Positions 3,889-38,875 of a stretch of 40,772 bases of DNA are shown here, piece after piece. The notes under the pieces were generated by a model. That model was given only the letters and a program-made list of their open reading frames with translations, was not told the DNA's origin and made no database searches. The position numbers and the translations under genes are program-made. Source of the DNA: a virus. Location of the stretch: the IMG/VR virus record IMGVR_UViG_3300045988_051055, positions 1 to 40,772 of that record; one strand, 5' to 3'. Within the stretch, counting starts at the first letter, position 1. The number at the start of each line of letters is the position of its first letter.

Positions 3889-3891
3889 GCC

Positions 3892-4281: not shown

Positions 4282-6758
4282 AAAGTGCTCCCTCCGATCG
4301 CAGGCCCGCGGCGCTGCCGCTCCACTTCGATCTGCGGGTAGATCGTCCGGACAAACTGCGCCATTGTGGTGTTGCCCTTGAAATTCACGGTCACGTCGCC
4401 GCCGAAGTCGGATTCCGCCAAAGCCTGCTTGAACATCTGCAGCATCGTAGCCGCAGGAGTCTCAATGTTCATGCCGCTCCTCTGGTCACCGAGCACAGCC
4501 AGAAACTCGTTGTTGGGCGAGATCACTGCGCCATTTGCAAGGTACGGATAGGCATCCATCAAGCTCTGCGGCGCAGCCGCGTATGTACGCGCTCCGCCGC
4601 CGGTGAAGGTTTCCAGAACGGCAGTGCCGAAACCAGAAAAGGCTCTTCCCAAGAAATCGGAAAGCGCATTTGCCGCCTCCGAGATCAAGTCGATAATGCT
4701 TGAAAGCGTATCGCCCAACCACTCGATCGCGGAGCCAAGGGCTTGTATCGCATCGATCAGCACACTTCCCAAAAACTCGGCGATCGGTTTGACGATCTCC
4801 CATATGGCGCTGAAAAGGTCAAACACTGACTGGAGGATGGGCGTAAGCGCTTTGAAGACAGAGCCGAGCAAATTGACCGCTGCGGGAGCCGCCTCTTCGA
4901 TCGTCCACTTGGCAAGAGGAAGCAGGATGTTCTCCCACGCCCAAGACAGCCCGCCGAGCAAAACGTCGACCAAAGGTTCAAACACTTCCAGCAGTGAGCG
5001 GAATGCGGTCACGATCGGCTCAAGGTTCAACCCCTGTGCCCAATTCAATGTTGCCGCGCTGATCTCGTTGAAGAAGTCTAAGATATCCTGCACGACATCA
5101 AGGATCACATTCCAGATCGCGACGCCGTTCTTGTTGGCTTCCCACGTCTCGCGCAAGCGATTTGCCAGCTCGCCCACCGTGTTGTTGACGTTTGCAATGA
5201 TACTCAGCAGCGTTTCCATGATCTGCACGCCGCTGCCGTCGTTCCACGCCTCACGAAATGCCTCTCCAATGCTGCGGAGTAGGTCCATGACCGACGTGAG
5301 TCGAAACGCAATGCTCTGGATCACCGCTTCGCCCGCGCCGGAGTTCCACGCCGTCGTAAACGCCGCTGCAATGTCCCCGATGATGCCGAGGATAGTCTGC
5401 AGGAGAAGCTGGAACGAATTGAGAACGGACAAGCCGGCGCCGCTCGTCCACACGTTTTTGAACGTCGCCCACAGAGAGGACGCGAGGTCTTTGAGTTTCT
5501 GGAACGCGCTTTTGGCCGCGTTGATGGTTGCCGTGCCGTACTGTTCCCAGCTTTTCTTGAATGGCTCCCAGAACGAAGAGAGACCGCCCGTGTCAAAGAC
5601 TGTAGAGAAGTCCGTATCAAACTTTGGCGCAGTCTTGTTTTCTTCTTTGCTTACCTTTTCGATCGTGTCGAACGAGGCCAGAAACTTCTCGGCATTTTTT
5701 GCCGCCTTGCCGGTCGCCTCGGTCGCGTCGGCCTGCTCGTAAAGGGCTTTGGCATTTTCCTGCGCCTGCTTGGCGGTCGTTCCAAAGATGGAGGCTACAA
5801 ACTGCGCCATCTGGGCCGTAAGCTGCTCCACCTTTTCGAGCATCGCCGTCAGAGCCGGTAAAACCGCCTCGTAGATCGGCTGGAACGCCGTGAGGAGATT
5901 GCTCTTGATGCCGCTGAGCGCCTTTGCAAAGTCGTCGTTAGCTGTCAGGTATTGCCCCATCTGCTGGGTCAGCTTGCGCAGAGCCTTGCTGATGACGTTG
6001 AACACCAACGCGCCAAGCACGATGGACTTTAAGCGTCTGCCGAATTTCTGCATGGAGCGGCTCGCCGTGTTCATGTCTTTGCTGCTCTTGCCGATGCAGC
6101 GCAGCTTGGCCAGAAGTGCAGCCGCGGCAAGCTTGGACTTGGTCAGTCCTGCCGCAATGCCAGTCTTAAGCTTTCCGCCGATGTTGCCGAGCACCGCACG
6201 GAGCTGCTCAAACTTGCTCGTGTAGCCGCCAGCCAAGTCGTTAATTGCCGCCCGGGTACCGCTTGCCTCCGCCTGCAGGCGTTCGAGCTTGCTCTCGGCA
6301 AGGGTAATGTCCTCCGCCAGATGCCGAGCCTCTGTCGTTGCTTCGGGGTTTCCTTTTAAGTCTGCGAGCCTTTGCTTTAAACCGTCTGCTTTTGCGTCGG
6401 CCTCTGCCAGTTTTTGTGCCAGCGTGTCGATCTGAGTTTGCGTCTGCGTATCTACTGAGCCGTTGGCCGCTTTGCTGATGTCCGCATATTCGCGGAGCTT
6501 CTGGTATTCCTGATCGAGTTTTTCCGCTTCTGCTTCGGCTTTTTTCAGCTCATCGGCCAGTTTTTTCGCGCCTTTTGGTTCCGCGTTTTCCGCAGTCAGC
6601 TCCGCATATTTTTCTTTTAGCCGATCGACCGCCGTCGCCTGCTTGTCTACGCTTTCCGTTTGGCGGCGCAGCTTGGCATTGAGCTGGTCGAGCTTCTTTT
6701 TCGCTTTTTCGTCACTGACGATGGCTTCGATGCGAATGCTGCCGTCAGCTTGTGCCAT
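4278..6758 (-). CDS. Tape measure protein (826 aa)
   Basis: Largest tail gene. Coiled-coil N-terminus, repeated W..SG.G helical motifs (TFKNVWTSGAG, TTAWNSGAG, REAWNDGSG) and canonical position. Confidence 0.9.
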   Translation of the reverse strand: MAQADGSIRIEAIVSDEKAKKKLDQLNAKLRRQTESVDKQATAVDRLKEKYAELTAENAEPKGAKKLADELKKAEAEAEKLDQEYQKLREYADISKAANGSVDTQTQTQIDTLAQKLAEADAKADGLKQRLADLKGNPEATTEARHLAEDITLAESKLERLQAEASGTRAAINDLAGGYTSKFEQLRAVLGNIGGKLKTGIAAGLTKSKLAAAALLAKLRCIGKSSKDMNTASRSMQKFGRRLKSIVLGALVFNVISKALRKLTQQMGQYLTANDDFAKALSGIKSNLLTAFQPIYEAVLPALTAMLEKVEQLTAQMAQFVASIFGTTAKQAQENAKALYEQADATEATGKAAKNAEKFLASFDTIEKVSKEENKTAPKFDTDFSTVFDTGGLSSFWEPFKKSWEQYGTATINAAKSAFQKLKDLASSLWATFKNVWTSGAGLSVLNSFQLLLQTILGIIGDIAAAFTTAWNSGAGEAVIQSIAFRLTSVMDLLRSIGEAFREAWNDGSGVQIMETLLSIIANVNNTVGELANRLRETWEANKNGVAIWNVILDVVQDILDFFNEISAATLNWAQGLNLEPIVTAFRSLLEVFEPLVDVLLGGLSWAWENILLPLAKWTIEEAAPAAVNLLGSVFKALTPILQSVFDLFSAIWEIVKPIAEFLGSVLIDAIQALGSAIEWLGDTLSSIIDLISEAANALSDFLGRAFSGFGTAVLETFTGGGARTYAAAPQSLMDAYPYLANGAVISPNNEFLAVLGDQRSGMNIETPAATMLQMFKQALAESDFGGDVTVNFKGNTTMAQFVRTIYPQIEVERQRRGPAIGGSTL

Positions 6759-6778: not shown

Positions 6779-7324
6779 TTACTTGATCTGTGCCCAGAAT
6801 TCGTCAATGGCTTCCTGCTCTTCCTTGGTAAATTTAACCGGCGGAGTGAGCTTCTTTTTCAGCCGCTCGTACTGTGCTTTCTGCTTGGGCTTCATGCCGC
6901 TCGTGTCCGTCCCGCGGATCTGGATCGCATGAGACAGCGCGGAATCTTCATCCACGCATCCCAAAAGCTCCATAAATTCAAACCAGTGCATTTTCTGCTT
7001 GTGGATGTCGATGCCAAAGCTCTTTCGAAACGAGGAGCAAATGCGGCCGGCATCGAAGTCAAACCAAATGCATTGCTTTGCCTTGTCCGGTGCGTCCTGC
7101 GCCTCCGCTCCGCAACGCATAAACCACCCGAGGCCCTCCACCGCCGTCTCCAGCGGCGGAAGGCCCCGTCCGAAGAGGAGCGAAATAGCCGTGAACACAC
7201 GGTCGTTTTCGCTCAAGTCTTCATCTTGCAGGCAAAGTGCGATCTGAATGCCAATCCGATAATCCGGCCGGATCAAAAAGCCGTTGTAGTCCTCTGGAAG
7301 ATGGTCTAACAAAATGTCAAACAC
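6779..7324 (-). CDS. Tail assembly protein, Listeria A118 Gp15-like (181 aa), GTG start
   Basis: Lies directly upstream of the TMP. GTG at 7324 follows GGAGGGGA. Family assignment is from memory of Gp15-type proteins. Confidence 0.6.
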   Translation of the reverse strand: MFDILLDHLPEDYNGFLIRPDYRIGIQIALCLQDEDLSENDRVFTAISLLFGRGLPPLETAVEGLGWFMRCGAEAQDAPDKAKQCIWFDFDAGRICSSFRKSFGIDIHKQKMHWFEFMELLGCVDEDSALSHAIQIRGTDTSGMKPKQKAQYERLKKKLTPPVKFTKEEQEAIDEFWAQIK

Positions 7325-7712
7325 TCGATCCCCTCCGGCCGGCGCTATACTTGCTTATTGCTTCCGCACGGTCTTTTTTGTACTCTTCTAAATAGGGAGT
7401 CAGAAGCGTAAAGAATTCGAGGAACATCTCAACGCCCGGAAGAATATTGCCAAAAACCTTGTGGCAAGTCTCCGCGCCGAAAAGGCCGTCTACCCGCTCC
7501 ATCATGTACTTGTCAAACGCGACGATCACATCCATCGATCCGAGGATATCGTTGCTGTCCGTCTGGATCTCTGCCGCCTTTTTCTGCGCCTCATCGACCA
7601 AGGCATAGAAATTACGGAGGAATTGGTCATCGCCGACCGGAAGGAGGATGTATTCGCCCTCGTCGTTTACTTCAATGCGCTTTACGCCGTTCAGCCGAAT
7701 CACATTTGCCAT
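7317..7712 (-). CDS. Tail assembly chaperone-position protein (131 aa)
   Basis: Lies between the major tail protein and the Gp15-like gene. GGAGGGAAA RBS. Confidence 0.6.
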   Translation of the reverse strand: MANVIRLNGVKRIEVNDEGEYILLPVGDDQFLRNFYALVDEAQKKAAEIQTDSNDILGSMDVIVAFDKYMMERVDGLFGAETCHKVFGNILPGVEMFLEFFTLLTPYLEEYKKDRAEAISKYSAGRRGSSV

Positions 7713-7727
7713 CTTGTTTCCCTCCTA

Positions 7728-8240
7728 TCAGGCGGTCTTGGTAAAGGTGGGAGTACCGGACGTGATGGAGACCGTCCCGGGGATCGGGTCGCCCACATAG
7801 TTCAGCGTGTACTCCAACACGGGAGACTCACCGCCGTCGCCGCCGTAGGTGTCCACCTGAACAGAGACCTCCTGCACCTCTGCCGCGTAAGTAGCCGAAG
7901 CCTCAGAGCCGGTCTTGTCGTAAAGGTCGACGTTGAGGAGCCATGTGTGCGCGTCGCTCATGGTGGAGCGCTTGCGGCGCAGGCCGTTAACAAACTCGTA
8001 CACCTCGTCACCCTTGGTGCATTTCTGCGAAATGGGCATGGTCGGCTGATAGCCGGTCAGCTCTGTCGTGGCAGATTCGGAAATAATGTCCTGCTCCGTC
8101 TCCGTCTGCGGGTTATATTCCGTGGACGCGCTGTCTACGTTTTTACCAACGCGCTTCCACGCTGCATCTGCGTAGTCCGCGGCTTTTGAAGTATCCAGAA
8201 AGTGTGCGATCGCGCTTCTTTTAATTTTTTCGATTGCCAT
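7728..8240 (-). CDS. Major tail protein (170 aa)
   Basis: Position after the connector genes; sequence resembles TP901-1/phi13-type major tail proteins (AHFLDTS...NPQTETEQDI...). GGAGGT RBS. Confidence 0.75.
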   Translation of the reverse strand: MAIEKIKRSAIAHFLDTSKAADYADAAWKRVGKNVDSASTEYNPQTETEQDIISESATTELTGYQPTMPISQKCTKGDEVYEFVNGLRRKRSTMSDAHTWLLNVDLYDKTGSEASATYAAEVQEVSVQVDTYGGDGGESPVLEYTLNYVGDPIPGTVSITSGTPTFTKTA

Positions 8241-8721: not shown

Positions 8722-8746
8722 GCCGCTCCTTCGGGAGCGGCTTTTT
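8722..8746 (+). terminator. Intrinsic terminator of the TM2 moron (plus-strand specific)
   Basis: GCCGCTCC-TTCG-GGAGCGGC followed by TTTTT. There is no U-tract in the minus orientation. Confidence 0.8.
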
Positions 8747-9203
8747 ATACCTCGACGTGGTATGTCATTTTCATCATGATCTGATGGTCTTCGTCGCCGT
8801 TTTCAAACACATCAAACATCACCGCCCTCGCAACCGGCTCGATGCTTACCACCGTGCGATTCCCCCCAATGTCTGGAAATTGTTTCTTTGCCCATTCCCC
8901 AATTGCATCCAGCACTTCGTCGGCCTTTAGCCGCTTATCTGTGCTGTTTCCAGGTTTGATACGGTAAATCAGCTTGAATTGATACTCCGTATCGTAGTTT
9001 CCGAGAATGTCATAATCAGGCGAATATGAGTTTTGAACCAGAGATAGAGCCATGCCTGGCGTATCTGCCGAAAGCTTGGATTCGTAATCAATCAATGCAA
9101 CGGGTTTGTCTGGGTAAGTATTGAGCCAAACTAAGATTTTCCGATTTAAGTCATCCTGCTCCTGCTTAGAATAAAGCATGATCGGCTTTTCATTTAAACT
9201 CAT
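8745..9203 (-). CDS. Tail terminator-position / minor capsid-family protein (152 aa)
   Basis: Last connector-block gene before the major tail protein. The call rests on synteny. Confidence 0.5.
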   Translation of the reverse strand: MSLNEKPIMLYSKQEQDDLNRKILVWLNTYPDKPVALIDYESKLSADTPGMALSLVQNSYSPDYDILGNYDTEYQFKLIYRIKPGNSTDKRLKADEVLDAIGEWAKKQFPDIGGNRTVVSIEPVARAVMFDVFENGDEDHQIMMKMTYHVEV

Positions 9204-9600
9204 GCCCCGCCGCCTTTCTCGCTACGCGCAACCATTTGCTTTCGTTTTCGGCCTTAGACGCTTCAAACCAGTGGTCGGTTGCCATGCCGTGATGGTCTTG
9301 CCGAAACACAAGGTTCCGGTCAGTCGCAACCTTTGTCCCGCCTTTTGGCGCATATGTACTGCCGGTGTTTGGGTCGACCATGACCTTGCCTTCATAGAGA
9401 AATCTTGCATAAGGTCCCGGATAAACAACAGCTCCGCCATCCACATAGGCCCGATTGGATAGGCCTGCCGCAGCGCCAGACATCGGAACATAGGGAGCCG
9501 TGTCCTTCAAGATTTGCGTGGCAACCACAGTCTCGATTTTTTGACTTGCCCGATCAAGGAAGCCCTTTGGCGTTTTGATTTTTACGCGATATGCAATCAT
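9190..9600 (-). CDS. Head-tail joining protein, HK97 gp10-like / minor-capsid family (136 aa)
   Basis: Start moved to ATG 9600 (GGAGGCAAGTGAA upstream, directly after the upstream stop). Carries a PYARFLYEG-type motif. Confidence 0.55.
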   Translation of the reverse strand: MIAYRVKIKTPKGFLDRASQKIETVVATQILKDTAPYVPMSGAAAGLSNRAYVDGGAVVYPGPYARFLYEGKVMVDPNTGSTYAPKGGTKVATDRNLVFRQDHHGMATDHWFEASKAENESKWLRVARKAAGHEFK

Positions 9601-9601
9601 T

Positions 9602-10051
9602 TCACTTGCCTCCGCATTCCCAATGCTGCATATCTTCGCTGCCAAAGTCCATTGCGTCTACCTTTGTCAGATTCCAGCAGTTATCCTGTGAAAGCGCCAC
9701 ATCTTCCTTGTCGGTGATAAACTCGCCCTTGATGAAAAACGTAACCCCACCGTTGCCGCTGACTGAAAGCGTCCACAGTCCGGTCTTATCTGTAGCACGG
9801 TAAAACTCCTGCGGCCCGACGTATTTCTTTGGCTTACCCGTCGCCCCGTCTATCGCTTCTACGGAAAACGGGATATACAGGTTGACCGCATCCGCGCCCT
9901 CTAACCCGGTCTTGCGCACATTTGCGCCCTTTGACGCTTCACACAGCACGCCGCGTAAAATCGTGACGTAGAGCTTAGTAACGTCCTTAAACGTTGCCGG
10001 ATCGGTTTCCTTGACGGAGTTGTAGATCGTTACAGTGTGGGGAGCGTACAT
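9602..10051 (-). CDS. Head closure / stopper-position protein (149 aa)
   Basis: GGGGAGGTG RBS. Position between the adaptor and the gp10-like gene. Confidence 0.55.
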   Translation of the reverse strand: MYAPHTVTIYNSVKETDPATFKDVTKLYVTILRGVLCEASKGANVRKTGLEGADAVNLYIPFSVEAIDGATGKPKKYVGPQEFYRATDKTGLWTLSVSGNGGVTFFIKGEFITDKEDVALSQDNCWNLTKVDAMDFGSEDMQHWECGGK

Positions 10052-10461
10052 TTGCAGTCACCTCCCCGATACAAAAGTCCGGTATGCGCCAGATACTCAT
10101 TGCACAGATTTGCAAGCATTTGTTTACTGGTGCTTACTGCATCCAGCACAGACTTTGCCGCTTCGCCACCGGTCGTAAGTGTGCGGGAATAGCTGCCTAC
10201 CGATTCGCTCTTGGTTTCCGGGTCGCCTGCATTGGCAAGGCTTTTTGTCGCCGCCTTCTGCGCCGCATCCAGCAAAGCGTACTGGTCGATCAACGCACAG
10301 CAGCACATCTTCACCGCGTCCAAATCGGCGTGACTTTCAGCCTTCCCCATCGTGTAGTAGTCGAGGAAGGAGCTGGCCCGAACAGCCAGACGCGGAAAAT
10401 CTCCCTCGCTCACAGAACCCACATAGATTCCGGCGTAGTATGCATAATCAGCGTATGTCAT
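10030..10461 (-). CDS. Head-tail adaptor (gp6-like head-tail connector family) (143 aa)
   Basis: First gene after the major capsid gene. Tyr-rich N-terminus MTYADYAYYAGIY is typical of the family. AAAGGAG RBS. Confidence 0.65.
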   Translation of the reverse strand: MTYADYAYYAGIYVGSVSEGDFPRLAVRASSFLDYYTMGKAESHADLDAVKMCCCALIDQYALLDAAQKAATKSLANAGDPETKSESVGSYSRTLTTGGEAAKSVLDAVSTSKQMLANLCNEYLAHTGLLYRGGDCKCTLPTL

Positions 10462-31408: not shown

Positions 31409-31828
31409 ATGAACATCCAAGAAGTGTGTAGAATCCGTAAAGAAGAATTGAAACTGACCTATCAGGAAATTTCCGACGTTTCCGGCGTACCGCTGTCCAC
31501 CGTGCAGAATTTCTTTTCCAAGTTTTCAAAAGCTCCGTCCATCTACACCGTCGCGCCGATCTGCAAAGCGCTTGGAATATCGCTTGATGAAGCGTTCGGG
31601 ATTTCCGAACACTTGACGCCGACCGAGAAAACCTTGCAAGCGCGGAATGATGAGCTGGAACGCCATGTTGACGCAAAGGCCGATACCATTGAGATCATGC
31701 GGCGCGGTGTGCGTATCCGCAATGGCGTGATTGCTATATTGTTCCTCATCACCGTTTTTCTCGCTGCGTGGTGCGTGTACATCGATTTCCATTGCATAGA
31801 TTACGGATTTTGGAGGGGGGTTCGATGA
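31409..31828 (+). CDS. XRE HTH protein with coiled coil and C-terminal TM anchor (139 aa)
   Basis: AAGGTGG RBS. HTH segment LTYQEISDVSGVPLSTVQNFFS. TM segment VIAILFLITVFLAAWCVYI. ATGA overlap with the integrase start. Confidence 0.75.
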   Translation: MNIQEVCRIRKEELKLTYQEISDVSGVPLSTVQNFFSKFSKAPSIYTVAPICKALGISLDEAFGISEHLTPTEKTLQARNDELERHVDAKADTIEIMRRGVRIRNGVIAILFLITVFLAAWCVYIDFHCIDYGFWRGVR

Positions 31829-33123
31829 GAGCGGCATTGTATATCCGCGTCTCGAGCGAAGAACAAGCGCGGCATGGCCTGTCCCTGCAAGAGCAGCGGG
31901 ACGCGCTAATGAGATATGCCAAAGCAAATAAAATGTTGGTGGTTGGCATATATGAGGACGCGGGTATATCCGCGCGAAAGCCGTATAAACAGCGTCCTGC
32001 GCTTCTGCGGCTGCTGGATGATTGCAAAGCGGGAAAGGTAGACACGATCCTATTTATCAAGCTTGACCGATGGTTTCGCAATGTCGCAGGGTACTACGAT
32101 GTGCAGACGCAGTTGGACAAATACGGCGTGACATGGCAGGCGACGGAAGAAGACTACGAGACGCGCACCGCGTCCGGGCGCTTAAAGGTAAACATCATGC
32201 TTTCCGTCGCGCAGGACGAGGCCGACCGCACAAGCGAGCGGATCAAATTTATCAACGACGGCAAGCGCGCAAAAGGCCAACCGGCAGGATCAAAAGCCCC
32301 TTTAGGGTATATTGTTAAGGACAGGCAATACCAGATTGATAACGATACGGCAGATGCCGCGCGAGATATGTTTGCGGCGTATATCAGACTGCAAAGCGTG
32401 CTGGGCGTAAAGAAGTATATGCTTGAGACGTGGGGGATTGACAGGGCGTATACCAAATATGTAAACTATTTCCGCAATCGCCTTTATATCGGCGAGGTGT
32501 ACGGCATCGAGAACGCTTGCCCCGCCCTGGTGAGCAAGCAGGATTTTGACATTGTAAATGATATTCTTCGCCAGCGGTCGCAGCGCTGCGCGGGAGTTGA
32601 GACAGATCGCGTTTATCTGTTTTCGGGGTTGCTGCATTGCAAAGAGTGTGGGAAAACGATGCAGTCGGAAACGGCAAAGCATATCTATACCTACTACCGA
32701 TGCCGGACGCGAATGCTTGACAACTCCGCGTGCCAGCATAAAAAGAGGATCCGCGAAGACGCGCTGGAAGATTACTTATTGCATGAGCTTGAAGGGATTG
32801 CCGAGCGAAACAATCGCTATTACAAAAAGGCAGAAAAAAAGCCCACGCAAAGCGCGGACGCGATACGAAAGAAAATGAGCAAGCTGAAAACGCTTTATCT
32901 GAATGATTTGATCGAGTTGGACGAATACAAGCGGGAGTATGCGAGCTTGAAGAAATCCCTTGAAGCGGTAGAGGAAAAGCCGAAGACAAACCTTGATGCG
33001 CTCCGAAATGGGCTTGCTGAATATGACACTTACTCCCGGGAAGAGAAAAAGGAATTTTGGACGCGCTTTATCCGGAGAATTGACGCAGATGACGACGGCG
33101 CGTTTTTTGTAACGCCACGTTAG
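31825..33123 (+). CDS. int: Large serine recombinase (phage integrase) (432 aa)
   Basis: MRAALYIRVSSEEQ catalytic Ser motif, a resolvase domain, then a recombinase/zinc-ribbon region (CKECGKTM...YYRC) and a coiled coil. GGAGGGGGG RBS. Confidence 0.92.
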   Translation: MRAALYIRVSSEEQARHGLSLQEQRDALMRYAKANKMLVVGIYEDAGISARKPYKQRPALLRLLDDCKAGKVDTILFIKLDRWFRNVAGYYDVQTQLDKYGVTWQATEEDYETRTASGRLKVNIMLSVAQDEADRTSERIKFINDGKRAKGQPAGSKAPLGYIVKDRQYQIDNDTADAARDMFAAYIRLQSVLGVKKYMLETWGIDRAYTKYVNYFRNRLYIGEVYGIENACPALVSKQDFDIVNDILRQRSQRCAGVETDRVYLFSGLLHCKECGKTMQSETAKHIYTYYRCRTRMLDNSACQHKKRIREDALEDYLLHELEGIAERNNRYYKKAEKKPTQSADAIRKKMSKLKTLYLNDLIELDEYKREYASLKKSLEAVEEKPKTNLDALRNGLAEYDTYSREEKKEFWTRFIRRIDADDDGAFFVTPR

Positions 33124-33171: not shown

Positions 33172-33204
33172 CCCCCGCCTTACGACGGGGGTGTTCTTAT
33201 TTTT
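33172..33204. terminator. Bidirectional terminator between int and the convergent cassette
   Basis: CCCCCG-8 nt-CGGGGG, with T-rich tracts on both strands. Confidence 0.7.
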
Positions 33205-33532
33205 CGAGCTTCCGCATCACGCTGTTGTACACGCGCTCGTTTACGATTTTCAAGCTGTCCATCAGCTCGTCCATGATCTCCCACGCCTTGTCCGGTGAAA
33301 CATCTGCCACTGCGCGCAAAAAATCGCTGTCGCCGTAGCTGCCTACCGTTTCAGACGCATAGGTCTTGACCGGCGCCGGAGCTGCCGAATACAACATTGG
33401 CCTTTCCGGTTCTTTTGGCGCGTTTTGATTTTGGATGATGTACAGCGCCGCCAGCTTTTGATAATTGGGCCAGCTCGATTCCTCCGTCTCAAGCCGCGAT
33501 ATCCACAGATTGACCTCGTTTTCGTCGATCAA
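33197..33532 (-). CDS. Cassette protein 8, hypothetical (111 aa), TTG start
   Basis: AAGGGGGTG lies 7 nt upstream of the TTG. Last gene before the bidirectional terminator. Confidence 0.55.
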   Translation of the reverse strand: MIDENEVNLWISRLETEESSWPNYQKLAALYIIQNQNAPKEPERPMLYSAAPAPVKTYASETVGSYGDSDFLRAVADVSPDKAWEIMDELMDSLKIVNERVYNSVMRKLEK

Positions 33533-33547
33533 GGGGACGCACCCCCT

Positions 33548-33991
33548 TTATTCCTCCATCAGGCTCGCGGCACGACGCAGCGCTTCCTTTACGCGGTCGT
33601 CGTCCGTCTCGCGCATCATGTCGTTGATTTGCTCGCGCAGGTGCTCCATGCTGTCGGCGCGGCTGTAGTGCCCGCGGACGTAATGCGTGCCGCGGCGAGC
33701 ATAGGAGCTGCCCCTGCCGTAAGTGCCGCGCATATCGGCCTGCCAGTCGCCGCCGCGAGAATACTCACCGTCGCGGGAATAATCGCCATCGCGGGAATAG
33801 CGACGCGAATAGTCTCCGTCGCGAGAGTAACCGTCGTCCTCCATCATCTCGATCTTGTCGATGTTCTTGATGGTGTCGGTCAGCTTGTGCGCGATCTCAA
33901 GGTCGCCCGCGCCCAGGTCGCCCTTACGCGCCAGCTCGTCGAGTTCGTCGCACAGCATATTGCGAAGCTCGTACATTGCTTTCTTACTCAT
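33548..33991 (-). CDS. Cassette protein 7: helical protein with YSRDG-type repeats (147 aa)
   Basis: ATG at 33991 follows AAAGGAGAA. Repeat run is DGYSRDGDYSRRYSRDGDYSRDGEYSRGGD. Confidence 0.6.
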   Translation of the reverse strand: MSKKAMYELRNMLCDELDELARKGDLGAGDLEIAHKLTDTIKNIDKIEMMEDDGYSRDGDYSRRYSRDGDYSRDGEYSRGGDWQADMRGTYGRGSSYARRGTHYVRGHYSRADSMEHLREQINDMMRETDDDRVKEALRRAASLMEE

Positions 33992-34004
33992 GTCCATTCT
34001 CCTT

Positions 34005-34427
34005 TCACGCGATTCTCTCAACCGTCAGGTTCGAGTTGGCGAAGTTGACGGCCTGAGTGCTGGTGTTTTCCATTGCGACCGTCAGGCAGCAGCCTTTCGG
34101 GACGCAGACCTGTGCGGAAACATAAATGTTAAAGTAGTTTCCTACCGCCGCAGGCGTGACGGTAGCTGTTGCGCTGGTCAGCGGCTCTCCGTTGATGGCA
34201 AGCGCCGCCGTGATGGCCTCAACCGTGCCTCCGGTGGGAATAGCGATGTTGCCGCCATAGGAGACCCGAAACAGAGCGCGGTTTTGATTGGTGATGCCGC
34301 GCAGCGTGATCTGGCCGCTTCCTTCTCTATGCACGATACAGGGCTTGCTATTGACCGCCGTTTCGGTCAGGGGAACGTTCTGGCCAGCAGCAACGGTCTG
34401 AATTGCCGCAGAAGTAAATTCTGCCAT
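34005..34427 (-). CDS. Cassette protein 6: C1q/TNF-like (BclA C-terminal-domain-like) beta-sandwich candidate (140 aa)
   Basis: Sequence pattern QNVPLTETAVNS..I.HREGSGQITLRG....LFRVSYGGNIA...AITAALAINGEPL......NIYVSAQVCVPKGCCLTV.N.S...V.F.NSNLTVERI. Alternative ATG at 34436. Confidence 0.5.
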   Translation of the reverse strand: MAEFTSAAIQTVAAGQNVPLTETAVNSKPCIVHREGSGQITLRGITNQNRALFRVSYGGNIAIPTGGTVEAITAALAINGEPLTSATATVTPAAVGNYFNIYVSAQVCVPKGCCLTVAMENTSTQAVNFANSNLTVERIA

Positions 34428-34449
34428 TAAAATCATTCCTTTCTCAGTT

Positions 34450-34480
34450 AAAATAAGCGGCGGAGCTATTGCCCCGCCGC
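34450..34480 (-). terminator. Hairpin plus U-tract directly upstream of the cassette protein 6 RBS
   Basis: GCGGCGG-10 nt-CCGCCGC, followed on the minus strand by TTATTTT. Confidence 0.5.
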
Positions 34481-34511
34481 GTTGTTGTCAATATCGGCAC
34501 GGGGCCGAACA

Positions 34512-34531
34512 TTTTGTTGACGTCAACAAAA
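34512..34531. promoter_or_regulatory. 20-nt perfect palindrome TTTTGTTGACGTCAACAAAA
   Basis: Checked by eye. Intergenic position, with TTGAC in both orientations. Confidence 0.5.
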
Positions 34532-34563
34532 CATTGCCAACAAAAAGCTATGCTATGCAGTTG

Positions 34564-35298
34564 TCAGCAGCCGCAGCCCTGATTGCAGCCGCAGCCGCCG
34601 TAACCGCTGCCCGCCCACGGGTTACAGGTAATGTAGGCAGGCGAAGGGCACGGACGCAGCTGCGAGATCAGATAGTTGTTCTGCGCGGCCTGAGATGCCG
34701 CCAGTTTCAGATTCTGATTCTCGGTCTGGAGGTCGGACAGCTTGCTCTGCGTCAGGAAGTCGAGGATGGCGCGGCTGTTCTGGTTGTTCGCGTCAATGAT
34801 GTCGCGTGTGGCGTTCTGCACGGTGTTGCGCGTGTCGCACGCCTGCGCCGCCATGTCGTAGCGCACCTGGGCGATAGCTGCACGGTTTTCGCAGCAACAA
34901 TTAGCGGCCTGCATCTGCATGGCGTTGAGCTGCTGCATCAGCGCCGCCTGCTGGTTTGCGCGGGACAGCTCGGACTGTGCAAAGCCGTTTGCCATCGCCA
35001 TGTTGGTGCCGTTGACAAGCTGCGCCTGCTGGTAGAATCCGTCGCAAAGGCCCTGATTTACACTGTCGATCTTGCGCTCGACATTGGCAAAATCAGAGGT
35101 CAGCACATAGCCGTCGACCACGCCGCCGCTGTTGCCGTTGTTCCCCCAGCCGCCATTTCCCCAACCGAGAAATGCGAAAAGGAACAAGATAATAATAAAC
35201 CAGCTGCCTTCTCCGCCCCAGCCAAAGCCGCCGCCGTTGCTGGAATTTACGGGCGCAACAGGCATAGTGGCCTGAACGCCGCCGTCAGAAAGAGACAT
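34564..35298 (-). CDS. Cassette protein 5: Gly/Trp-rich single-TM protein with Gln/Asn-rich coiled coil and Cys-rich C-terminus (244 aa)
   Basis: AAAGGAG RBS. Segments: NGGGFGWGGEGSWFIIILFLFAFLGWGNGGWGNNGNSGG; ..AANCCCENR..; C-terminus CNPWAGSGYGGCGCNQGCGC. Confidence 0.65.
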   Translation of the reverse strand: MSLSDGGVQATMPVAPVNSSNGGGFGWGGEGSWFIIILFLFAFLGWGNGGWGNNGNSGGVVDGYVLTSDFANVERKIDSVNQGLCDGFYQQAQLVNGTNMAMANGFAQSELSRANQQAALMQQLNAMQMQAANCCCENRAAIAQVRYDMAAQACDTRNTVQNATRDIIDANNQNSRAILDFLTQSKLSDLQTENQNLKLAASQAAQNNYLISQLRPCPSPAYITCNPWAGSGYGGCGCNQGCGC

Positions 35299-35364
35299 AG
35301 TATCACTCCTTTGAAAAATTTTTATTCATCAAATCGTGGCCACGATGTTGATTTATGTTGATGA

Positions 35365-35583
35365 TTACTGCATTAGACTTTGAAACTGCTTCGCCATCTG
35401 TTGCAGCTGGTTCAACTGCTGCTGGTTCAGCCTACCGCTCTGCAAGAGCTTTTCGACCTCCGCTTTGGGGTCGCCATGAAAATTTGCCTTGAATTGCTGG
35501 AACTGCTGCATCATGCGCTGGAACTGGCCTACCGGTCCGGGCATTTGCCCGCCGCCAAGCGCGGTCATAAAGGGATTACTCAT
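35365..35583 (-). CDS. Cassette protein 4: small Gln-rich helical protein (72 aa)
   Basis: GAGGAGGA RBS, 8-nt overlap with the upstream gene. Sequence includes QFQRMMQQFQQFK...LNQQQLNQLQQMAKQFQSLMQ. Confidence 0.6.
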   Translation of the reverse strand: MSNPFMTALGGGQMPGPVGQFQRMMQQFQQFKANFHGDPKAEVEKLLQSGRLNQQQLNQLQQMAKQFQSLMQ

Positions 35584-36007
35584 CGTCCTCGTCCTCCTCG
35601 ACCTTGCGCTTCTTCTTGCCCTTTATTTCGCCCACAAGCGCCGCCAGACGGTCGAACTCCTCGCGTGTGACAAATTCCACTCCCGGCTTTTGCGACGCGT
35701 TAGAGGCCGTTTCTGTGCGCTCTACGAGGTCGTAAATCTTGAGCGTCGGTTTGCCGCTTGCGTCTGCCTGCTTGAGGTACACGGTGGGGGCGGTGGAATC
35801 CCACAACGCTACGGCAGAGTTGGGCGCGATCAGGTAGCCTCTCGCCTCCTGCTCGCTGCTCACCCATTGCACGCCGCCGGTCGCAACAGGATTTTGCGGC
35901 ACGGAAGGCGGAGCAGGCTGCATCATCTGCTGCTGCCGCATCTGCATGAGGTTATCCGGCATCGGCTGTGGATAATAAGGGTTTTGATAGTACGGATTAA
36001 AAGCCAT
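35576..36007 (-). CDS. Cassette protein 3: Pro/Tyr/Gln-rich N-terminus, beta-rich core, KKKRKVEEDEDDE tail (143 aa)
   Basis: ORF track. N-terminus MAFNPYYQNPYYPQPMPDNLMQMRQQQMMQ. Confidence 0.6.
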   Translation of the reverse strand: MAFNPYYQNPYYPQPMPDNLMQMRQQQMMQPAPPSVPQNPVATGGVQWVSSEQEARGYLIAPNSAVALWDSTAPTVYLKQADASGKPTLKIYDLVERTETASNASQKPGVEFVTREEFDRLAALVGEIKGKKKRKVEEDEDDE

Positions 36008-36008
36008 G

Positions 36009-36389
36009 TCATTCAGTCTCCTTTACCCAAAAATAAATCACAGTCTCATTGCTGCTGTCCCACGAGTCAAAGATCGTCCCGTCCTGCACGCACACCACAT
36101 GGCCGGACAGGGCTAAAATGTATGTGCCTGCCGGATGCTCGTCCGCAAACTGCCCGACGGTATAGCAAAGAGGACAGGTGTCCGGCACGATGTAGCGCCG
36201 ATAGCCGAGAGAGTGCAGATACGCGCCCCAGGTCGCATTGGCCGACGGCATGTCTCCGTCTAAGTAGCCTTGTATGGCGAGCGCGAGATACGTTTCGCCC
36301 CAGTCTTTTCCGGTCGCTTTGGAGATCGCCCGAACGGTGCAGTCGCCCACGTTCTTGCCATAAGGCGACGGGTTATAATAGCTATACAT
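36009..36389 (-). CDS. Cassette protein 2: putative papain-fold Cys/His peptidase-like protein (126 aa)
   Basis: NVGDCTVRAISKATG (candidate nucleophile Cys) and LALSGHVVCVQDGTIFDSWDS (candidate His/Asp). The function is inferred from this pattern only. Confidence 0.5.
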   Translation of the reverse strand: MYSYYNPSPYGKNVGDCTVRAISKATGKDWGETYLALAIQGYLDGDMPSANATWGAYLHSLGYRRYIVPDTCPLCYTVGQFADEHPAGTYILALSGHVVCVQDGTIFDSWDSSNETVIYFWVKETE

Positions 36390-36504
36390 GGAGCAGCTCC
36401 GCGAAGAAGACGTAGGTGCGCAGCTCGTCCGGCTCGGAGAACAGCACCAAAATATCCCTCGCCATCTGCTCGGTGAAGCCCAATGCCAAAAGCCGTTCGT
36501 ACAT
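36382..36504 (-). CDS. Cassette protein 1: micro-ORF (40 aa) MYERLLALGFTEQMARDILVLFSEPDELRTYVFFAELLHV
   Basis: AAGGAGGTG lies 6 nt upstream of ATG 36504. A 93-aa in-frame extension to 36663 is possible but would span a terminator hairpin. Confidence 0.45.
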   Translation of the reverse strand: MYERLLALGFTEQMARDILVLFSEPDELRTYVFFAELLHV

Positions 36505-36534
36505 ACAGCGCACCTCCTTTTCTGCCTCTATGGT

Positions 36535-36571
36535 ACAAGAAAACCCCTTTTCCAAAGTGCCGGGAAAGGGG
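36535..36571 (-). terminator. Leader terminator/attenuator ~30 nt before the cassette RBS
   Basis: Minus strand reads CCCCTTTCCC-ggcacttt-GGAAAAGGGG, followed by TTTTCTTGT. Confidence 0.6.
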
Positions 36572-36680
36572 ATGAAAAGTGTACGGCGAAATTCGTCGAA
36601 CGATTGCGCTTGCAAATTCTGACGGGATATGCTATTTTTGTCACGACGTGCTCCATGCGTCATTCATACCCCCCCATAAA

Positions 36681-36716
36681 GGAAAAGAGCCTCACCGTTT
36701 GGTGAAGCTCTTTTCC
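36681..36716 (-). terminator. Long stem-loop at the stop codon of the sigma-like gene
   Basis: GGAAAAGAGCCTCACC-gttt-GGTGAAGCTCTTTTCC (16 bp, 1 mismatch), followed on the minus strand by TTTATG. Confidence 0.55.
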
Positions 36717-36952
36717 TATTCAAAGACTTCCGATGCGATTTTGCGGTACGCCTTTCGGCGATACTTTTTGACCGTATCAGGCGACAGGTTCATTTCAAAT
36801 GCCACCTGTACGCAGGAGCGGCCCCGCACGTCGCACTCGACGAGGCACGCCATTTCGTCGGGCGGAAGCTCAAAAGACCGAATGTATGCCACGGCCCGCC
36901 GCGGGGCCATAGAGGATAATTTTGCGCGGATCGCTCGGTGCTGCTTGTCCAT
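36716..36952 (-). CDS. Small sigma-70 region-4-like HTH protein (78 aa; alternative GTG start at 36982)
   Basis: LPPDEMACLVECDVRGRSCVQVAFEMNLSPDTVKKYRRKAYRKI resembles sigma region 4 / LuxR-type HTH. No clear SD, so the start is uncertain. Confidence 0.55.
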   Translation of the reverse strand: MDKQHRAIRAKLSSMAPRRAVAYIRSFELPPDEMACLVECDVRGRSCVQVAFEMNLSPDTVKKYRRKAYRKIASEVFE

Positions 36953-37019
36953 GCTGTGCGCCGGGGCTTGCAGAGCGCTCACGCGAGGGGAGGCATGCCT
37001 CCCGCCCGTTTTCCTTTCG

Positions 37020-37682
37020 TTATTTTAGAATTTTTTCGAGATATGCGTAAACATATTCCCCCCACGCTCTTTGCGTCGCGGGGCCGAAGGAGTTATCCAC
37101 ATCCAGCTCATAGCCGCAAGCGTTAAGAAGCTCTTGCAGCTTGCCGACCGCCGCGCCCTTGTCGCCGCGCGTGAGCACGGTCTTGTCCGCTGGATATTTC
37201 GGCACGCCGAAGCCGCGGATATAGCGCCCGTTGATCTCCAGCGTCCGGTAGCCGCACTCATGCTTGCTGCCCTTGTTCCCCTCGAACACATTGACGCAGT
37301 TCCCGACCACGCGCGTCACGATGCCCGTGTGGTTGGGCGCGCCCGTGCAGTCCGTGAGGGCGTAGTCCTTGCGGTCGTTCCAATGGTAGAAGACCTGTTC
37401 GCCGATTTTGGGAACGTGTGCGTCGTCCTCGACCCATTGGCCGCGCGCCTGATACCACCGCATCTGCTCGCCGCAGCTGCACTCGATGGGGAGCACCTCT
37501 GTCAGGCCGCAGAGGATCGCCGCCGCGGACACCATCGCCGCGCAGTAGTCGTCCGAATAGGCGAGCTTGTAGCCGCGCGGGTGCGGGAGGTAGCTGTTGT
37601 AGGCGTCCACGATGCTTTTATGCACCGCATCGCCGCGTACAGCGCCGACCCAGCCCGTCATGGTCTCAAGAAATTTCTTCAT
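37020..37682 (-). CDS. Endolysin: CHAP/NlpC-P60-like catalytic domain plus PG_binding_1-like C-terminus (220 aa)
   Basis: DDYCAAMVS (Cys) and APNHTGIV (His). C-terminal LTRGDKGAAVGKLQELLNACGYELDVDNSFGPATQRA. Lies directly after the holin gene. Confidence 0.85.
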   Translation of the reverse strand: MKKFLETMTGWVGAVRGDAVHKSIVDAYNSYLPHPRGYKLAYSDDYCAAMVSAAAILCGLTEVLPIECSCGEQMRWYQARGQWVEDDAHVPKIGEQVFYHWNDRKDYALTDCTGAPNHTGIVTRVVGNCVNVFEGNKGSKHECGYRTLEINGRYIRGFGVPKYPADKTVLTRGDKGAAVGKLQELLNACGYELDVDNSFGPATQRAWGEYVYAYLEKILK

Positions 37683-37854
37683 TTTTGCGTTTCTCGGTCT
37701 GCGTGCCGAAGTAGAAGGCGATGATGGTCGTGAAGATCGTCAGAAACTCCGTCCCGCTGATGCTGCCGCGCAGGGCAAGCACCGAGAAAACCGCCGTGAG
37801 CACGATGGTCACGATGCTCTTGACTGTGAGAAGATTGGCAATTCGATTTTGCAT
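37666..37854 (-). CDS. Holin (62 aa, two TM segments, charged C-terminus)
   Basis: LLTVKSIVTIVLTAVFSVLAL and FLTIFTTIIAFYFG, followed by TQTEKRKNEEIS. AAAGGAGG RBS. Overlaps the endolysin start. Confidence 0.75.
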   Translation of the reverse strand: MQNRIANLLTVKSIVTIVLTAVFSVLALRGSISGTEFLTIFTTIIAFYFGTQTEKRKNEEIS

Positions 37855-37865
37855 TTCTGCCTCCT

Positions 37866-38573
37866 TTACAGAAACCGCACGGCGTAAAATTGCCGCGTCT
37901 GTGTGTTGATCTTGTTACACGCGCCGTTGATGGCGGCGACGTGCCCGCCGTCGAGCATGACGGCGTATTCCAGCTTGAGCTTGTCCCGACAAAAGGCGTT
38001 GACCTGCTGCGCGGTCATGTTCTTGCAGTACACGCCGTAGAGCAGCCCGCCCTTGTAGCCAAGGACGGTGTGGTTGGTCTTGCGCAGCACATCGGAGTAA
38101 GCGCCCACAAAGCCCTCCGCCGCGGGGGCATAGCGGTCAAGCAAGCCAAGCCCACCGACCGCCCACACGACGCCGCCCAGCGCCGCCGCCGAGGACACGC
38201 GGGCCATGCGCACCGCGCCGTCCGTGGTCTTGTAGAGCACGCTCTCGGGGCGAGGATAGTGACAGCTCATGCCGCGCACGACCTTGCCGCCGCGCACCAG
38301 GATGGAGCAGGGCTGCCCCTGCCAAGAAAAGCTCCCCGAGATGGCGTTTCTCGGCAGCGGCCCGCTCATGTTGACGGGCTCGATGTCCCGCGCGATAATG
38401 CAGGGCTGACCGTACAGCTCGACGTTAAGCGGGAAGCAGTCTGCGCCGAGCTTGGCCGCGATGTCGCTCAAGGTCTGGTTGCCGATCCAGCCGTTGTCCA
38501 GCGCCCCGACGGAGCGCTGGATGGCGCGGATCATGCGCACCTCTTCCGAGGTAGCGCCCTTGACGTCTCTCAT
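37866..38573 (-). CDS. Second wall-active enzyme candidate, phosphodiester-glycosidase (NAGPA/DUF2233)-like (235 aa)
   Basis: ATG at 38573 follows GGGAGGTAA. The C-terminal YAVMLDGGHVAAING resembles the LDGGGS motif of that family. Assignment is from memory. Confidence 0.55.
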   Translation of the reverse strand: MRDVKGATSEEVRMIRAIQRSVGALDNGWIGNQTLSDIAAKLGADCFPLNVELYGQPCIIARDIEPVNMSGPLPRNAISGSFSWQGQPCSILVRGGKVVRGMSCHYPRPESVLYKTTDGAVRMARVSSAAALGGVVWAVGGLGLLDRYAPAAEGFVGAYSDVLRKTNHTVLGYKGGLLYGVYCKNMTAQQVNAFCRDKLKLEYAVMLDGGHVAAINGACNKINTQTRQFYAVRFL

Positions 38574-38875
38574 GACATTACCTCCCACTCGTCGATCTCG
38601 CTTTTGATGCGGTCAATAAAGCTGTTGCCGCCGAGGGCCTTGTAGCCCCGATAAAGGTAGATGAAATCCTCAAGCTCATACTGGCGGATCGTCTGGCTCT
38701 CGCGGTGCTTGTAGTAGGTGTGCAGCATGTCGTGCCGGAGCTGGCATTTGAGCGCGTCGGTCAGCTTGTCCAGCCCGAGCAGCTTGTTGCGCAGCGGCTT
38801 GACGAGCATGGCGACCGCCGCGAGGATCACCGTCACCTCCGAGCACAGCGCCGCCAATTTCGATAAACTTTCCAT
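38570..38875 (-). CDS. N-terminally TM-anchored protein at the head of the lysis cassette (101 aa)
   Basis: TM segment LAALCSEVTVILAAVAMLV. ATGA coupling to the next gene. Confidence 0.5.
   Translation of the reverse strand: MESLSKLAALCSEVTVILAAVAMLVKPLRNKLLGLDKLTDALKCQLRHDMLHTYYKHRESQTIRQYELEDFIYLYRGYKALGGNSFIDRIKSEIDEWEVMS

Follow-up and report, generated by a model that had tools for sequence, protein, structure and literature searches.

Introduction

What does a compact block of small genes do for a gut phage when it lies behind the lysis genes and resembles no standard phage function? The block, referred to below as the cassette, occupies positions 33197-36982 on the minus strand of the IMG/VR virus record IMGVR_UViG_3300045988_051055, of which the complete 40,772 nucleotides (nt) were analysed (the window). 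It comprises nine co-oriented open reading frames (ORFs), P1 to P9, together with four hairpin/U-run elements and two palindromes (Table 1). An initial annotation of this DNA had described an eight-gene block; all ORFs it named are present on the minus strand where it had placed them, but the count is nine when the regulator is included. Its remark that the block matches no standard phage function also stands: P3 to P8 match PHROG families labelled 'unknown function' (E 2e-17 to 7e-54), the match of P9 is marginal (E 0.03), and no meaningful Pfam, NCBIfam or PADLOC match was obtained for P3 to P9, none of which is explained by a family of these databases. Two folds (P7 and P3) and one helix-turn-helix (HTH) domain (P1) are recognisable in the module. 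The cassette is, as its gene order firmly shows, one conserved, co-inherited, mobile module of anaerobic gut phages, and it appears to be separately regulated.

Conservation and mobility of the module

The synteny set consisted of 88 diverse P6-holding loci from GenBank phages and IMG/VR, with identities to the query down to ~30-40%, which were searched iteratively with each cassette protein. P4 was found in 78 of these loci, P7 in 64, P5 in 43, P3 in 41, P8 in 37 and P9 in 31. The order P3-P4-P5-P6-P7-P8-P9 on one strand was invariant in all 88 loci and in 44 contigs of metagenome-assembled genomes (MAGs), with P4 always upstream of P6, P5 always between P4 and P6, P8 always after P7 and P9 always last. 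The minimal core of the module is P4-(P5)-P6-P7. Gene-neighbourhood comparison thus bears out the discrete unit postulated in the initial annotation, the genes being co-conserved in the same order in more than 130 loci. Among close relatives, at least 80 keep P1 and P2 together with the remaining genes, even where the endolysin has been replaced by an unrelated one.

Within the cassette the genes are tightly coupled, as had been claimed: the stop codon of P2 overlaps the start of P3 (ATGTATAG; CATGTATAG), P4 and P5 overlap by 8 nt, and the gap between P3 and P4 is 1 nt. These start/stop overlaps imply coupled translation. The G+C content of the cassette (0.55-0.58) equals that of the rest of the genome, and the cassette is therefore no recent foreign insert.

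Regarding genome position, the cassette directly follows the holin and endolysin genes in the window, Dulem virus 33, bajarodcaudo virus 5 and Butyrivibrio virus Ceridwen, and lies ~3.5 kb downstream of the amidase and holin genes in Clostridium perfringens phage CPD1. In Dulem virus 35 the whole module is found between the minor-capsid and the scaffold/major-capsid genes, with the endolysin and integrase at their usual place, which indicates that the module moves as a block. In ~148-kb TAG-recoded phage contigs (L215-L217), P4-P5-P6-P7-P8 form the distal part of the tail-fibre operon; these carriers have DNA polymerase III alpha and NrdD genes of their own, and in-frame TAG codons occur in their tail-fibre, RuvC, P4 and P5 genes. 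As such codons are found in both late and early-looking genes, the recoding gives no clock for late expression. Ceridwen carries the full P3-P9 set and has no integrase; it was isolated on Butyrivibrio fibrisolvens DSM 3071, and only lytic growth was seen (PMC7372960). The moron position after lysis genes and next to an integrase, noted in the initial annotation, is accordingly the usual one, but the module is once inside a head module and is also found in integrase-less phages.

Homologue searches with P6, P7 and P3 gave at least ~8,000 matches, nearly all to unnamed gut-metagenome proteins; the only organism name among the matches listed was Hominenteromicrobium sp. Many of the MAG contigs from the profile scan (alignment A5) are phage-sized and probably mis-binned, so that the host range is loosely defined.

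The predicted membrane protein P6

P6 is the only cassette protein with a hydrophobic segment (approximately residues 30-45, flanked by Gly, Trp and Asn), located behind a conserved N-terminus whose short N-tail is acidic. The long helical part is rich in Gln, Asn and Ala, has coiled-coil character and contains an invariant CCC motif with a further Cys ~18 residues on, and the Pro/Cys-rich tail (RPCPxPAY..GCGC) ends in GCGC repeats. The N-tail contains on average 0.4 Lys/Arg versus 2.9 Asp/Glu, a charge distribution that weakly favours an N-out/C-in topology; this would put the long domain of P6 in the same compartment as its signal-peptide-less partners. The family comprises 1,666 clusters at 50% identity (E<=1e-3; 812 at 1e-10), and the best 150 representatives of the 1,666 are all 89-340 amino acids (aa) long, so that no fused architectures are apparent among them. 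No Pfam holin or spanin family was matched by P6, whose PHROG label is 'unknown function'. A double-glycine leader or an F-ENA-type N-terminal hook was considered and dropped; the conserved N-terminal pattern is M-x-[LM]-[ST]-[DE]-G, and 'MPV.PV' is located internally.

P6 extends beyond the phages of Firmicutes. In four crAss-like phages (Suoliviridae and Steigviridae) it is encoded 1-2 kb downstream of the holin, LysB-like and L,D-carboxypeptidase genes, and it is also present in the isolated Bacteroides uniformis phage C3_41T2LP and in viruses assigned to Methanomassiliicoccales. The crAss-like homologues are annotated as 'spike protein/glycoprotein' or 'outer capsid protein/viral fiber', labels that appear to be coiled-coil artefacts. 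Comparison by hhalign of the P6 neighbours gp41, gp42, gp44 and gp45 of crAss-like phages with the cassette families revealed no relation.

In three unrelated phages the P6 homologue is immediately preceded by a free-standing HNH/HmuI homing endonuclease gene, a pattern from which, since it is typical of conserved, important phage genes, such a status may be inferred for P6; the corresponding site in the window is the P5-P6 gap (35299-35364). The P5-P6 gap of several IMG/VR loci measures 600-1300 nt and probably holds HNH genes too. In two crAss-like phages and vir215, the lysis/P6 region is closely preceded by a reverse-transcriptase gene.

The jelly-roll protein P7 and its replacement

The AlphaFold2 (AF2) model of P7, built with 120 homologues, had a mean predicted local distance difference test score (pLDDT) of 87.8 and a predicted template modelling (TM) score (pTM) of 0.80. 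The top Foldseek matches in PDB were 7r1m, 9h3d, 9h38, 8d02 and 1wck (probability 1.00, E ~2e-6, TM 0.64-0.76); the closest structures are ExsFA, BxpB and the C-terminal domains of F-BclA and BclA, followed by members of the TNF and C1q families, while the best matches in BFVD were uncharacterised gut-phage proteins of ~135 aa (TM 0.8-0.9). Five of 20 P7 homologues matched Pfam BclA_C (best 5e-7), the window P7 itself giving no match, and searches of Pfam with whole family alignments returned BclA_C for P7 alone. On the evidence of the model, P7 is a member of the TNF/C1q superfamily with a BclA_C-type domain, and the resemblance to C1q and the BclA C-terminal domain perceived in the initial annotation finds agreement in both AF2 and Foldseek. 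A homotrimer is expected from this fold. Collagen-like GXX repeats occur neither in the sequence nor in the family alignment (A2), so the protein consists of the globular domain only. ExsF/BxpB trimers bind the N-terminal peptides of partner proteins and thereby anchor them (PMC12357932, PMC10470788), a behaviour that by analogy suggests a docking role for P7.

In ~20% of modules the P7 slot is filled by a Cys-rich beta protein of ~130 aa (alt-P7), which is marked by an N-terminal C..C, the motifs AQxIP, YPL and IRTRTRY, and an Ala/Pro/Thr tail. It is unrelated to P7 by hhalign (probability 0.5%) and has no PDB match; as none of 14 members matched Pfam, identification as DUF3992 (Ena) or DUF4183 (F-ENA) was dropped.

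P2 and the papain-like protein P3

In three diverged lineages the orthologues of P2 (40-46 aa) retain both an LGFT.QMA.DI motif and the overlap with P3, which argues that this 40-aa ORF is real.

Regarding P3, the GDC..RA motif, H97, D108 and W110 are invariant in the family, and C17, H97 and D108 are invariant in 121 sequences; the GDC...GH Cys/His pattern picked out in the initial annotation therefore corresponds to an invariant Cys17/His97/Asp108 set. In the AF2 model (pLDDT 92.5), C17 starts a helix (17-26), H97 starts a strand (97-102) and D108 ends a strand (105-108), an arrangement that is papain-like as modelled and makes P3 a putative peptidase, amidase or transglutaminase-type enzyme. 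Foldseek gave no PDB match at E<=0.001 (best E 0.09). The best papain-fold match was Josephin-2 (probability 0.54, TM 0.46), and the weak matches were mostly to papain-fold proteases, deubiquitinases (DUBs) and amidases (Josephin-2, TssM, MCF, Tae4 and the LysGH15 CHAP domain). No Pfam, NCBIfam or PDB sequence match was found. Thus P3 resembles papain-fold enzymes (C39-like, Josephin DUBs, CHAP/Tae4, and Tgl acting on GerQ) in the placement of Cys, His and Asp and in having Gln/Lys-rich partners encoded next to it, but with 126 aa it is smaller than any of these and has no significant structural or sequence match to them. P3-like proteins are also encoded without the cassette in Tsamsa-like Bacillus phages (~165 kb), in Geobacillus phage GBK2 and in Lak megaphages (~540 kb), and P3 is therefore regarded as an accessory enzyme; some Tsamsa-like Bacillus phages have the homologue annotated as 'putative peptidase'.

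The low-complexity proteins P4, P5, P8 and P9

For P4, P5, P8 and P9 no informative family match was found, including Pfam and PDB in the case of P4. The head of P4 is rich in Tyr, Pro and Gln and leads into a conserved, beta-rich core of ~50 aa, after which come a helix and a tail of Lys, Glu and Asp (alignment A6). The start of P8 was set from its orthologues, and P9 has orthologues in Dulem virus 33, Ceridwen and CPD1. Profile searches against PDB sequences with P3, P4, P6, P7 and alt-P7 returned noise only. The P8/P9 region of CPD1 and bajarodcaudo virus 5 encodes a helical domain of ~175 aa; a ferritin-like identity assigned to it by eye is unverified and has no Pfam match.

P1 and the regulatory elements

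P1 matched Pfam Sigma70_r4_2 above the curated cutoff (1.1e-6; 28.6 bits versus 25.7), covering residues 38-82, and GerE more weakly (6e-5). The region-4-type HTH reported in the initial annotation is thus present, but the term 'sigma-like factor' was an overstatement: sigma region 2 was not found with Pfam or NCBIfam, all sigma models aligning by their last ~50 positions only, and a protein of 88 aa with region 4 alone cannot be a sigma factor. Judged from its sequence and place, P1 is a putative dedicated regulator of the cassette. Dulem virus 35 and bajarodcaudo virus 5 each have a small region-4-type HTH ORF immediately before the cassette, of 47 aa (Sigma70_r4, 7e-4) in the former and 78 aa (3.9e-6, exceeding the cutoff) in the latter; that of CPD1 (86 aa; Sigma70_r4_2, 6e-5) is ~2.5 kb upstream.

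The cassette is bracketed by terminators, T1 upstream and a bidirectional one downstream, which is the insulation characteristic of morons. T1 confirms the stem-loop that had been described at the P1 stop codon; its folding free energy (dG) is -29.1 kcal/mol, with a z-score (z) of -8.7. Relatives have a stem-loop in this position too, built from other stem sequences. The second leader terminator of the initial annotation, T2, exists as a hairpin with a U-run but is weak in the window (dG -13.1, z -1.3); in six other related lineages the same position is occupied by a hairpin and U-run with unlike stem sequences and z of -3.5 to -5.7. A conserved ACACTTTTCA motif lies upstream of T2, and a -10-like TGTACCAT (TGTA..AT type) just after the U-run. 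In seven lineages, including that of the window, the leader therefore has a terminator at the stop codon of the regulator and a GC-rich hairpin/U-run ~25 nt before the first ribosome-binding site (RBS). As there is no room for a promoter between the T2 hairpin and the RBS, the operon transcript must pass through the hairpin, a layout that recalls antitermination or attenuation control. An Rfam search of the region found no family. RNAalifold found no consensus structure on the leader alignment because the stems sit in different registers, and the leader hairpins were judged by folding each lineage separately.

The remaining hairpin/U-tract elements and palindromes, which the initial annotation had placed in two intergenic gaps, are likewise present in the P5-P6 and P6-P7 gaps. 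The latter repeats the theme of the leader, with a promoter-like site over a palindrome, then T3 and then an RBS. The palindrome TTTTGTTGACGTCAACAAAA occurs once in the window, recurs at the equivalent site of 38 related loci and is a candidate operator. Sigma-70-like promoter sites were weak ones only (4 versus 2.3 expected).

Genome setting

The window holds an apparently complete phage genome (~40.8 kb) with head, tail, packaging and then lysis genes on the minus strand; no tRNAs were found in it. The 240-aa ORF just upstream of the holin-like gene has a weak Pfam NAGPA (phosphodiester glycosidase) match (E 0.023) and could, to judge from this match, encode a second wall-active enzyme or a tail-associated protein. 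X101 has an N-terminal hydrophobic segment and no family match; 13 further diverse loci have it 0.5-1.2 kb before the cassette. An XhlA-like identity, assigned by eye to the small ORFs with transmembrane or coiled-coil character adjoining the cassette, was dropped as no Pfam match supported it.

Table 1. Positions of the cassette genes, regulatory elements and neighbouring genes in the window, and of related features in other records
Feature	Record	Coordinates	Strand	Remarks
P1, 88 aa, stand-alone sigma-70 region-4/LuxR-GerE-type HTH	window	36716-36982	-	start GTG 36982 or ATG 36952
T1, intrinsic-terminator-like stem-loop	window	36680-36717	-	17-bp arms, 4-nt loop, then UUU; at P1 stop codon
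T2, leader hairpin and U-run	window	36544-36571	-	~25 nt upstream of P2 Shine-Dalgarno
P2, 40-aa ORF (MYERLLALGFTEQMARDIL...)	window	36382-36504	-	strong Shine-Dalgarno AAAGGAGG; translationally coupled to P3
P3, 126 aa, predicted minimal papain-like Cys-His-Asp protein	window	36009-36389	-	phrog_3754 at 1.8e-34
P4, 143 aa	window	35576-36007	-	phrog_21718 at 3.3e-32; core member
P5, 72 aa, Met/Gln-rich head and helical hairpin	window	35365-35583	-	phrog_22984 at 1.5e-20
Hairpin with palindrome ATCGTGGCCACGAT, then A/U-rich run	window	35328-35352	-	in P5-P6 gap
P6, 244 aa, signature protein of the module	window	34564-35298	-	phrog_16490 at 1.3e-41
20-bp perfect palindrome TTTTGTTGACGTCAACAAAA	window	34512-34531	-	P6-P7 gap; overlaps promoter-like TTGGCA-18-CAAAAT
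T3, GC-rich hairpin and UUAUUUU	window	34457-34480	-	~20 nt before P7 Shine-Dalgarno; dG -22.5, z -6.4
P7, 140 aa, predicted TNF/C1q-fold jelly-roll (ExsFA/BxpB/BclA C-terminal domain-like)	window	34005-34427	-	phrog_20016 at 6.8e-54
P8, 147 aa, helical ends around YSRDG/RG-rich low-complexity centre	window	33548-33991	-	phrog_28802 at 2e-17
P9, 111 aa, predicted helical	window	33197-33532	-	C-terminal GDSDFL...ELMD..+..N.RVYN motif conserved
Bidirectional terminator	window	33172-33191		between P9 and serine recombinase gene; marks cassette end
Serine recombinase gene	window	31768-33123	+	convergent with P9
Endolysin	window	37020-37682		upstream of cassette; phrog_21357 at 2.3e-22; CHAP and PG_binding_1 matches weak
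Holin-like ORF, 62 aa	window	37666-37854		upstream of cassette
240-aa ORF	window	37866-38588		
X101, 101-aa ORF	window	38570-38875		
alt-P7	CPD1 (L002)	6376-6753		alignment A9
alt-P7	bajarodcaudo virus 5 (L084)	8734-9153		alignment A9
alt-P7	L094-L137			alignment A9
Helical domain ~175 aa, P8/P9 region	CPD1 (L002)	7334-7861		
Helical domain ~175 aa, P8/P9 region	bajarodcaudo virus 5 (L084)	9167-10165		
P3-like gene outside cassette	L213	4974-5369		
P3-like gene outside cassette	L214	4983-5372		
P3-like genes outside cassette	Lak phage records			
P6-carrying non-Firmicutes loci	L085, L219-L221			crAss-like
P6-carrying non-Firmicutes locus	C3_41T2LP (L222)			Bacteroides
P6-carrying non-Firmicutes locus	vir215 (L223)			archaeal-virus candidate
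HNH/HmuI gene by P6	Dulem virus 33 (L001)	7046-7597		
HNH/HmuI gene by P6	CPD1 (L002)	5044-5667		
HNH/HmuI gene by P6	C3_41T2LP (L222)	4270-4890		
Reverse-transcriptase gene near P6	L085	449-1471		
Reverse-transcriptase gene near P6	L220	72-1094		
Reverse-transcriptase gene near P6	vir215 (L223)	3152-4186		

Proposed function and alternatives

A late, P1-gated, membrane-anchored multiprotein assembly that acts at the host envelope together with lysis is put forward tentatively, as the least doubtful account of the module. What is inferred here, from the topology of P6 and the physical assembly to the enzymatic role of P3, the dependence on P1, the timing and the biological role, would run as follows. 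Late in infection the module would build a multiprotein assembly on the host cytoplasmic membrane, in which P6 would serve as single-pass anchor and stalk and would recruit the signal-peptide-less P7 as head and the low-complexity Gln/Tyr/Gly/Arg-rich P4, P5, P8 and P9 as matrix. P3, made together with P2, would process or cross-link the partner proteins. T1 would insulate transcription of the cassette from the late operon, and P1 would gate it via read-through of the promoter-proximal hairpins T2 and T3. The assembly would then work on the envelope with the lysis genes, either completing or timing cell disruption or protecting the infected cell or the progeny.

The envelope and lysis role is favoured because the module recurrently adjoins lysis genes, P6 doing so across phyla, and because P6 is the sole membrane protein. 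The idea of an assembly draws on P7, which has the predicted fold of trimer-forming exosporium proteins that dock the peptide tails of partners, and also on the hydrophobic segment confined to P6 with its acidic, nearly Lys/Arg-free N-tail, on the coupled translation implied by the start/stop overlaps and on the HNH genes beside P6. The P1-gated regulation is suggested by the HTH of P1, the recurrent upstream region-4 HTH ORFs, the structure-conserved T1 and T2, and the conserved palindrome with T3. As an analogy only, this arrangement is like that of lambda Q with PR'-tR', in that a small regulator gene is followed by a leader with a hairpin/U-run to be read through; unlike Q, P1 has a region-4/LuxR-type HTH and no similarity to Q, and it would control the cassette alone instead of a whole late operon. 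The outline of P6 (~30 N-terminal residues, one transmembrane segment and a C-terminal domain of ~190 aa with conserved cysteines) presumably resembles that of T4 gpT, a class III holin, or of an i-spanin, and P6 is likewise encoded near lysis genes. It differs from T4 gpT and spanins in the lack of sequence or profile similarity, in a charge bias that suggests the opposite topology and in its cytoplasmic-type partners; moreover, the window already has a holin, and the Gram-positive hosts have no outer membrane in which a spanin would be set.

Several points weigh against this account. No homology ties any cassette protein to a function, and the topology of P6 is read from charge bias alone; were its C-terminal part outside the cell, the signal-peptide-less partners could not meet P6 before lysis. 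A small holin of conventional type and an endolysin are already encoded in the window. In C3_41T2LP, P6 is encoded among recombination genes, not lysis genes, and the neighbours of P6 in crAss-like phages show no detectable relation to P4, P5, P7, P8 and P9, so P6 may work in different contexts. For P3 no structural neighbour reached significance, and the gene is missing from roughly half of the modules. T1 and a regulation of its own equally fit a moron expressed from the prophage.

A more elaborate picture, doubtful at present, is that of an unrecognised late function in which the proteins form a self-assembling, spore-coat-like Cys/Gln-rich lattice. P6 would be its anchor and stalk, an ExsFA/BclA-like trimer or alt-P7 its head, the low-complexity proteins its matrix and P3 its maturation or cross-linking enzyme, switched on by the region-4 regulator through terminator read-through.

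It is unlikely that the proteins are virion accessories or decorations, with P7 trimers and P4, P5, P8 and P9 as linkers on capsids or tails that would contribute stability or gut adhesion, for which mucus or host glycans are possible targets. In favour of this, phage fibres and receptor-binding tips often contain TNF/C1q-like domains (Foldseek matches to the fibre of cyanophage A-1(L), the spike knob of phi812 and tail fibres), the cassette is flanked by minor-capsid and major-capsid genes in Dulem virus 35 and ends the tail-fibre operon in the 148-kb phages, proteins without signal peptides would meet virions in the cytoplasm, and the module is restricted to gut viromes. However, its usual place after the lysis genes, behind a strong terminator and with its own regulation, is unusual for structural genes; the hydrophobic segment of P6 is of membrane type, no attachment domain can be recognised in P7, and in ~20% of modules an unrelated Cys-rich protein takes the slot of P7. 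Nothing relevant was found in the literature on the proteomics of carrier phages.

An improbable alternative, too, is a prophage-expressed moron that would exclude superinfecting phages, mask receptors or otherwise protect or defend the host at the membrane. Like Hendrix-type morons, the cassette lies between lysis genes and an integrase, is bracketed by terminators, apparently has separate regulation with its own regulator and can shift as a unit to other genome positions; its hub would moreover be the membrane protein P6. Unlike them, it has nine genes with deep synteny and homing endonucleases at P6, and occurs in integrase-less, lytic-only phages, in crAss-like phages and in large virulent-type phages, among them the 148-kb ones with their own replication machinery; these differences point to a phage-intrinsic function and not to a host-benefit gene. 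No PADLOC match was obtained at E<=1 except for a noise-level one of P6 (E 0.04), low-complexity coat-like proteins are atypical for defence systems, and P7 is the most conserved cassette gene rather than a fast-evolving one, a comparison biased by the choice of loci by P7 similarity.

The initial annotation had offered, as one speculative reading beside virion decoration and an exclusion/defence function, a prophage-encoded module for remodelling the envelope or spore surface under a dedicated sigma-like factor. The features from which it argued, a C1q/BclA-like P7 and Cys-rich proteins, were recovered, but a spore role is now very unlikely. The resemblance is real in several respects: the best structural matches of P7 are the exosporium proteins ExsFA/BxpB and the C-terminal domains of BclA/F-BclA, and, as in the ExsFA/BxpB-BclA (F-Anchor/F-BclA) system, P7 is a stand-alone jelly-roll of ~140 aa without signal peptide beside Cys-rich proteins. 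The composition is coat-like, with clustered Cys residues, repeats of Tyr, Arg and Ser, a Gln-rich head such as that of GerQ and a papain-like enzyme possibly acting as a transglutaminase; P1 matches the GerE/LuxR HTH family as well, and C. perfringens phages carry the core. Against this, P7 shares 11-16% identity with the exosporium structures and lacks collagen-like repeats, P1 lacks sigma region 2, an ExsY/CotY-type basal-layer protein is absent from the cassette, and P4, P5, P6, P8 and P9 have no exosporium counterparts; no coat or exosporium family of Pfam or NCBIfam (CotY/ExsY, CdeC, GerQ, YjcZ etc.) was matched by P3-P6, P8 or P9 at E<=0.1. Butyrivibrio, including B. fibrisolvens, is not known to form spores, and yet its phage Ceridwen has the full cassette, while P6 is found in Bacteroides, crAss-like and archaea-assigned viruses. 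The cassette in Ceridwen and the ~148-kb phages, together with P6 in crAss-like phages, argues against a spore-specific or purely lysogenic-conversion role.

That unrelated small accessory ORFs are adjacent by chance, as the lack of assigned functions for P3-P9 and the dispensability of P3, P8 and P9 in part of the family might suggest, is hardly credible in view of the overlapping stop and start codons between cassette genes and an identical order in >130 loci, down to ~30-45% protein identity, in phages of 33-160 kb and at differing genome positions.

Significance

The composition of this module is not matched by any lysis, structural, defence or coat system described so far, and nothing relevant was found in the literature on phage-encoded BclA/ExsF-like systems; its newness is an absence of knowledge and not a demonstrated new mechanism. 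In the gut viromes of humans and animals the module is one of the commoner gene sets that lack an explanation, reaching from ~40-kb siphoviruses to ~150-kb recoded phages, with P6 also in crAss-like phages. Assigning a function would annotate seven PHROG 'unknown' families together, and culturable carriers exist in Butyrivibrio virus Ceridwen on B. fibrisolvens DSM 3071 and in CPD1-type phages on C. perfringens. The occurrence of an exosporium-like fold outside spores bears on the spread of TNF/C1q-type anchoring modules between phages and spore-formers. Knowing the function could also uncover a new step, peculiar to anaerobes, in the release of phages or in their manipulation of the host envelope. 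If the lattice is real, it would be a new class of phage-host envelope machinery, for lysis/release control or progeny protection, with a hub, P6, that phages of Firmicutes share with crAss-like phages and with viruses assigned to methanogenic archaea.

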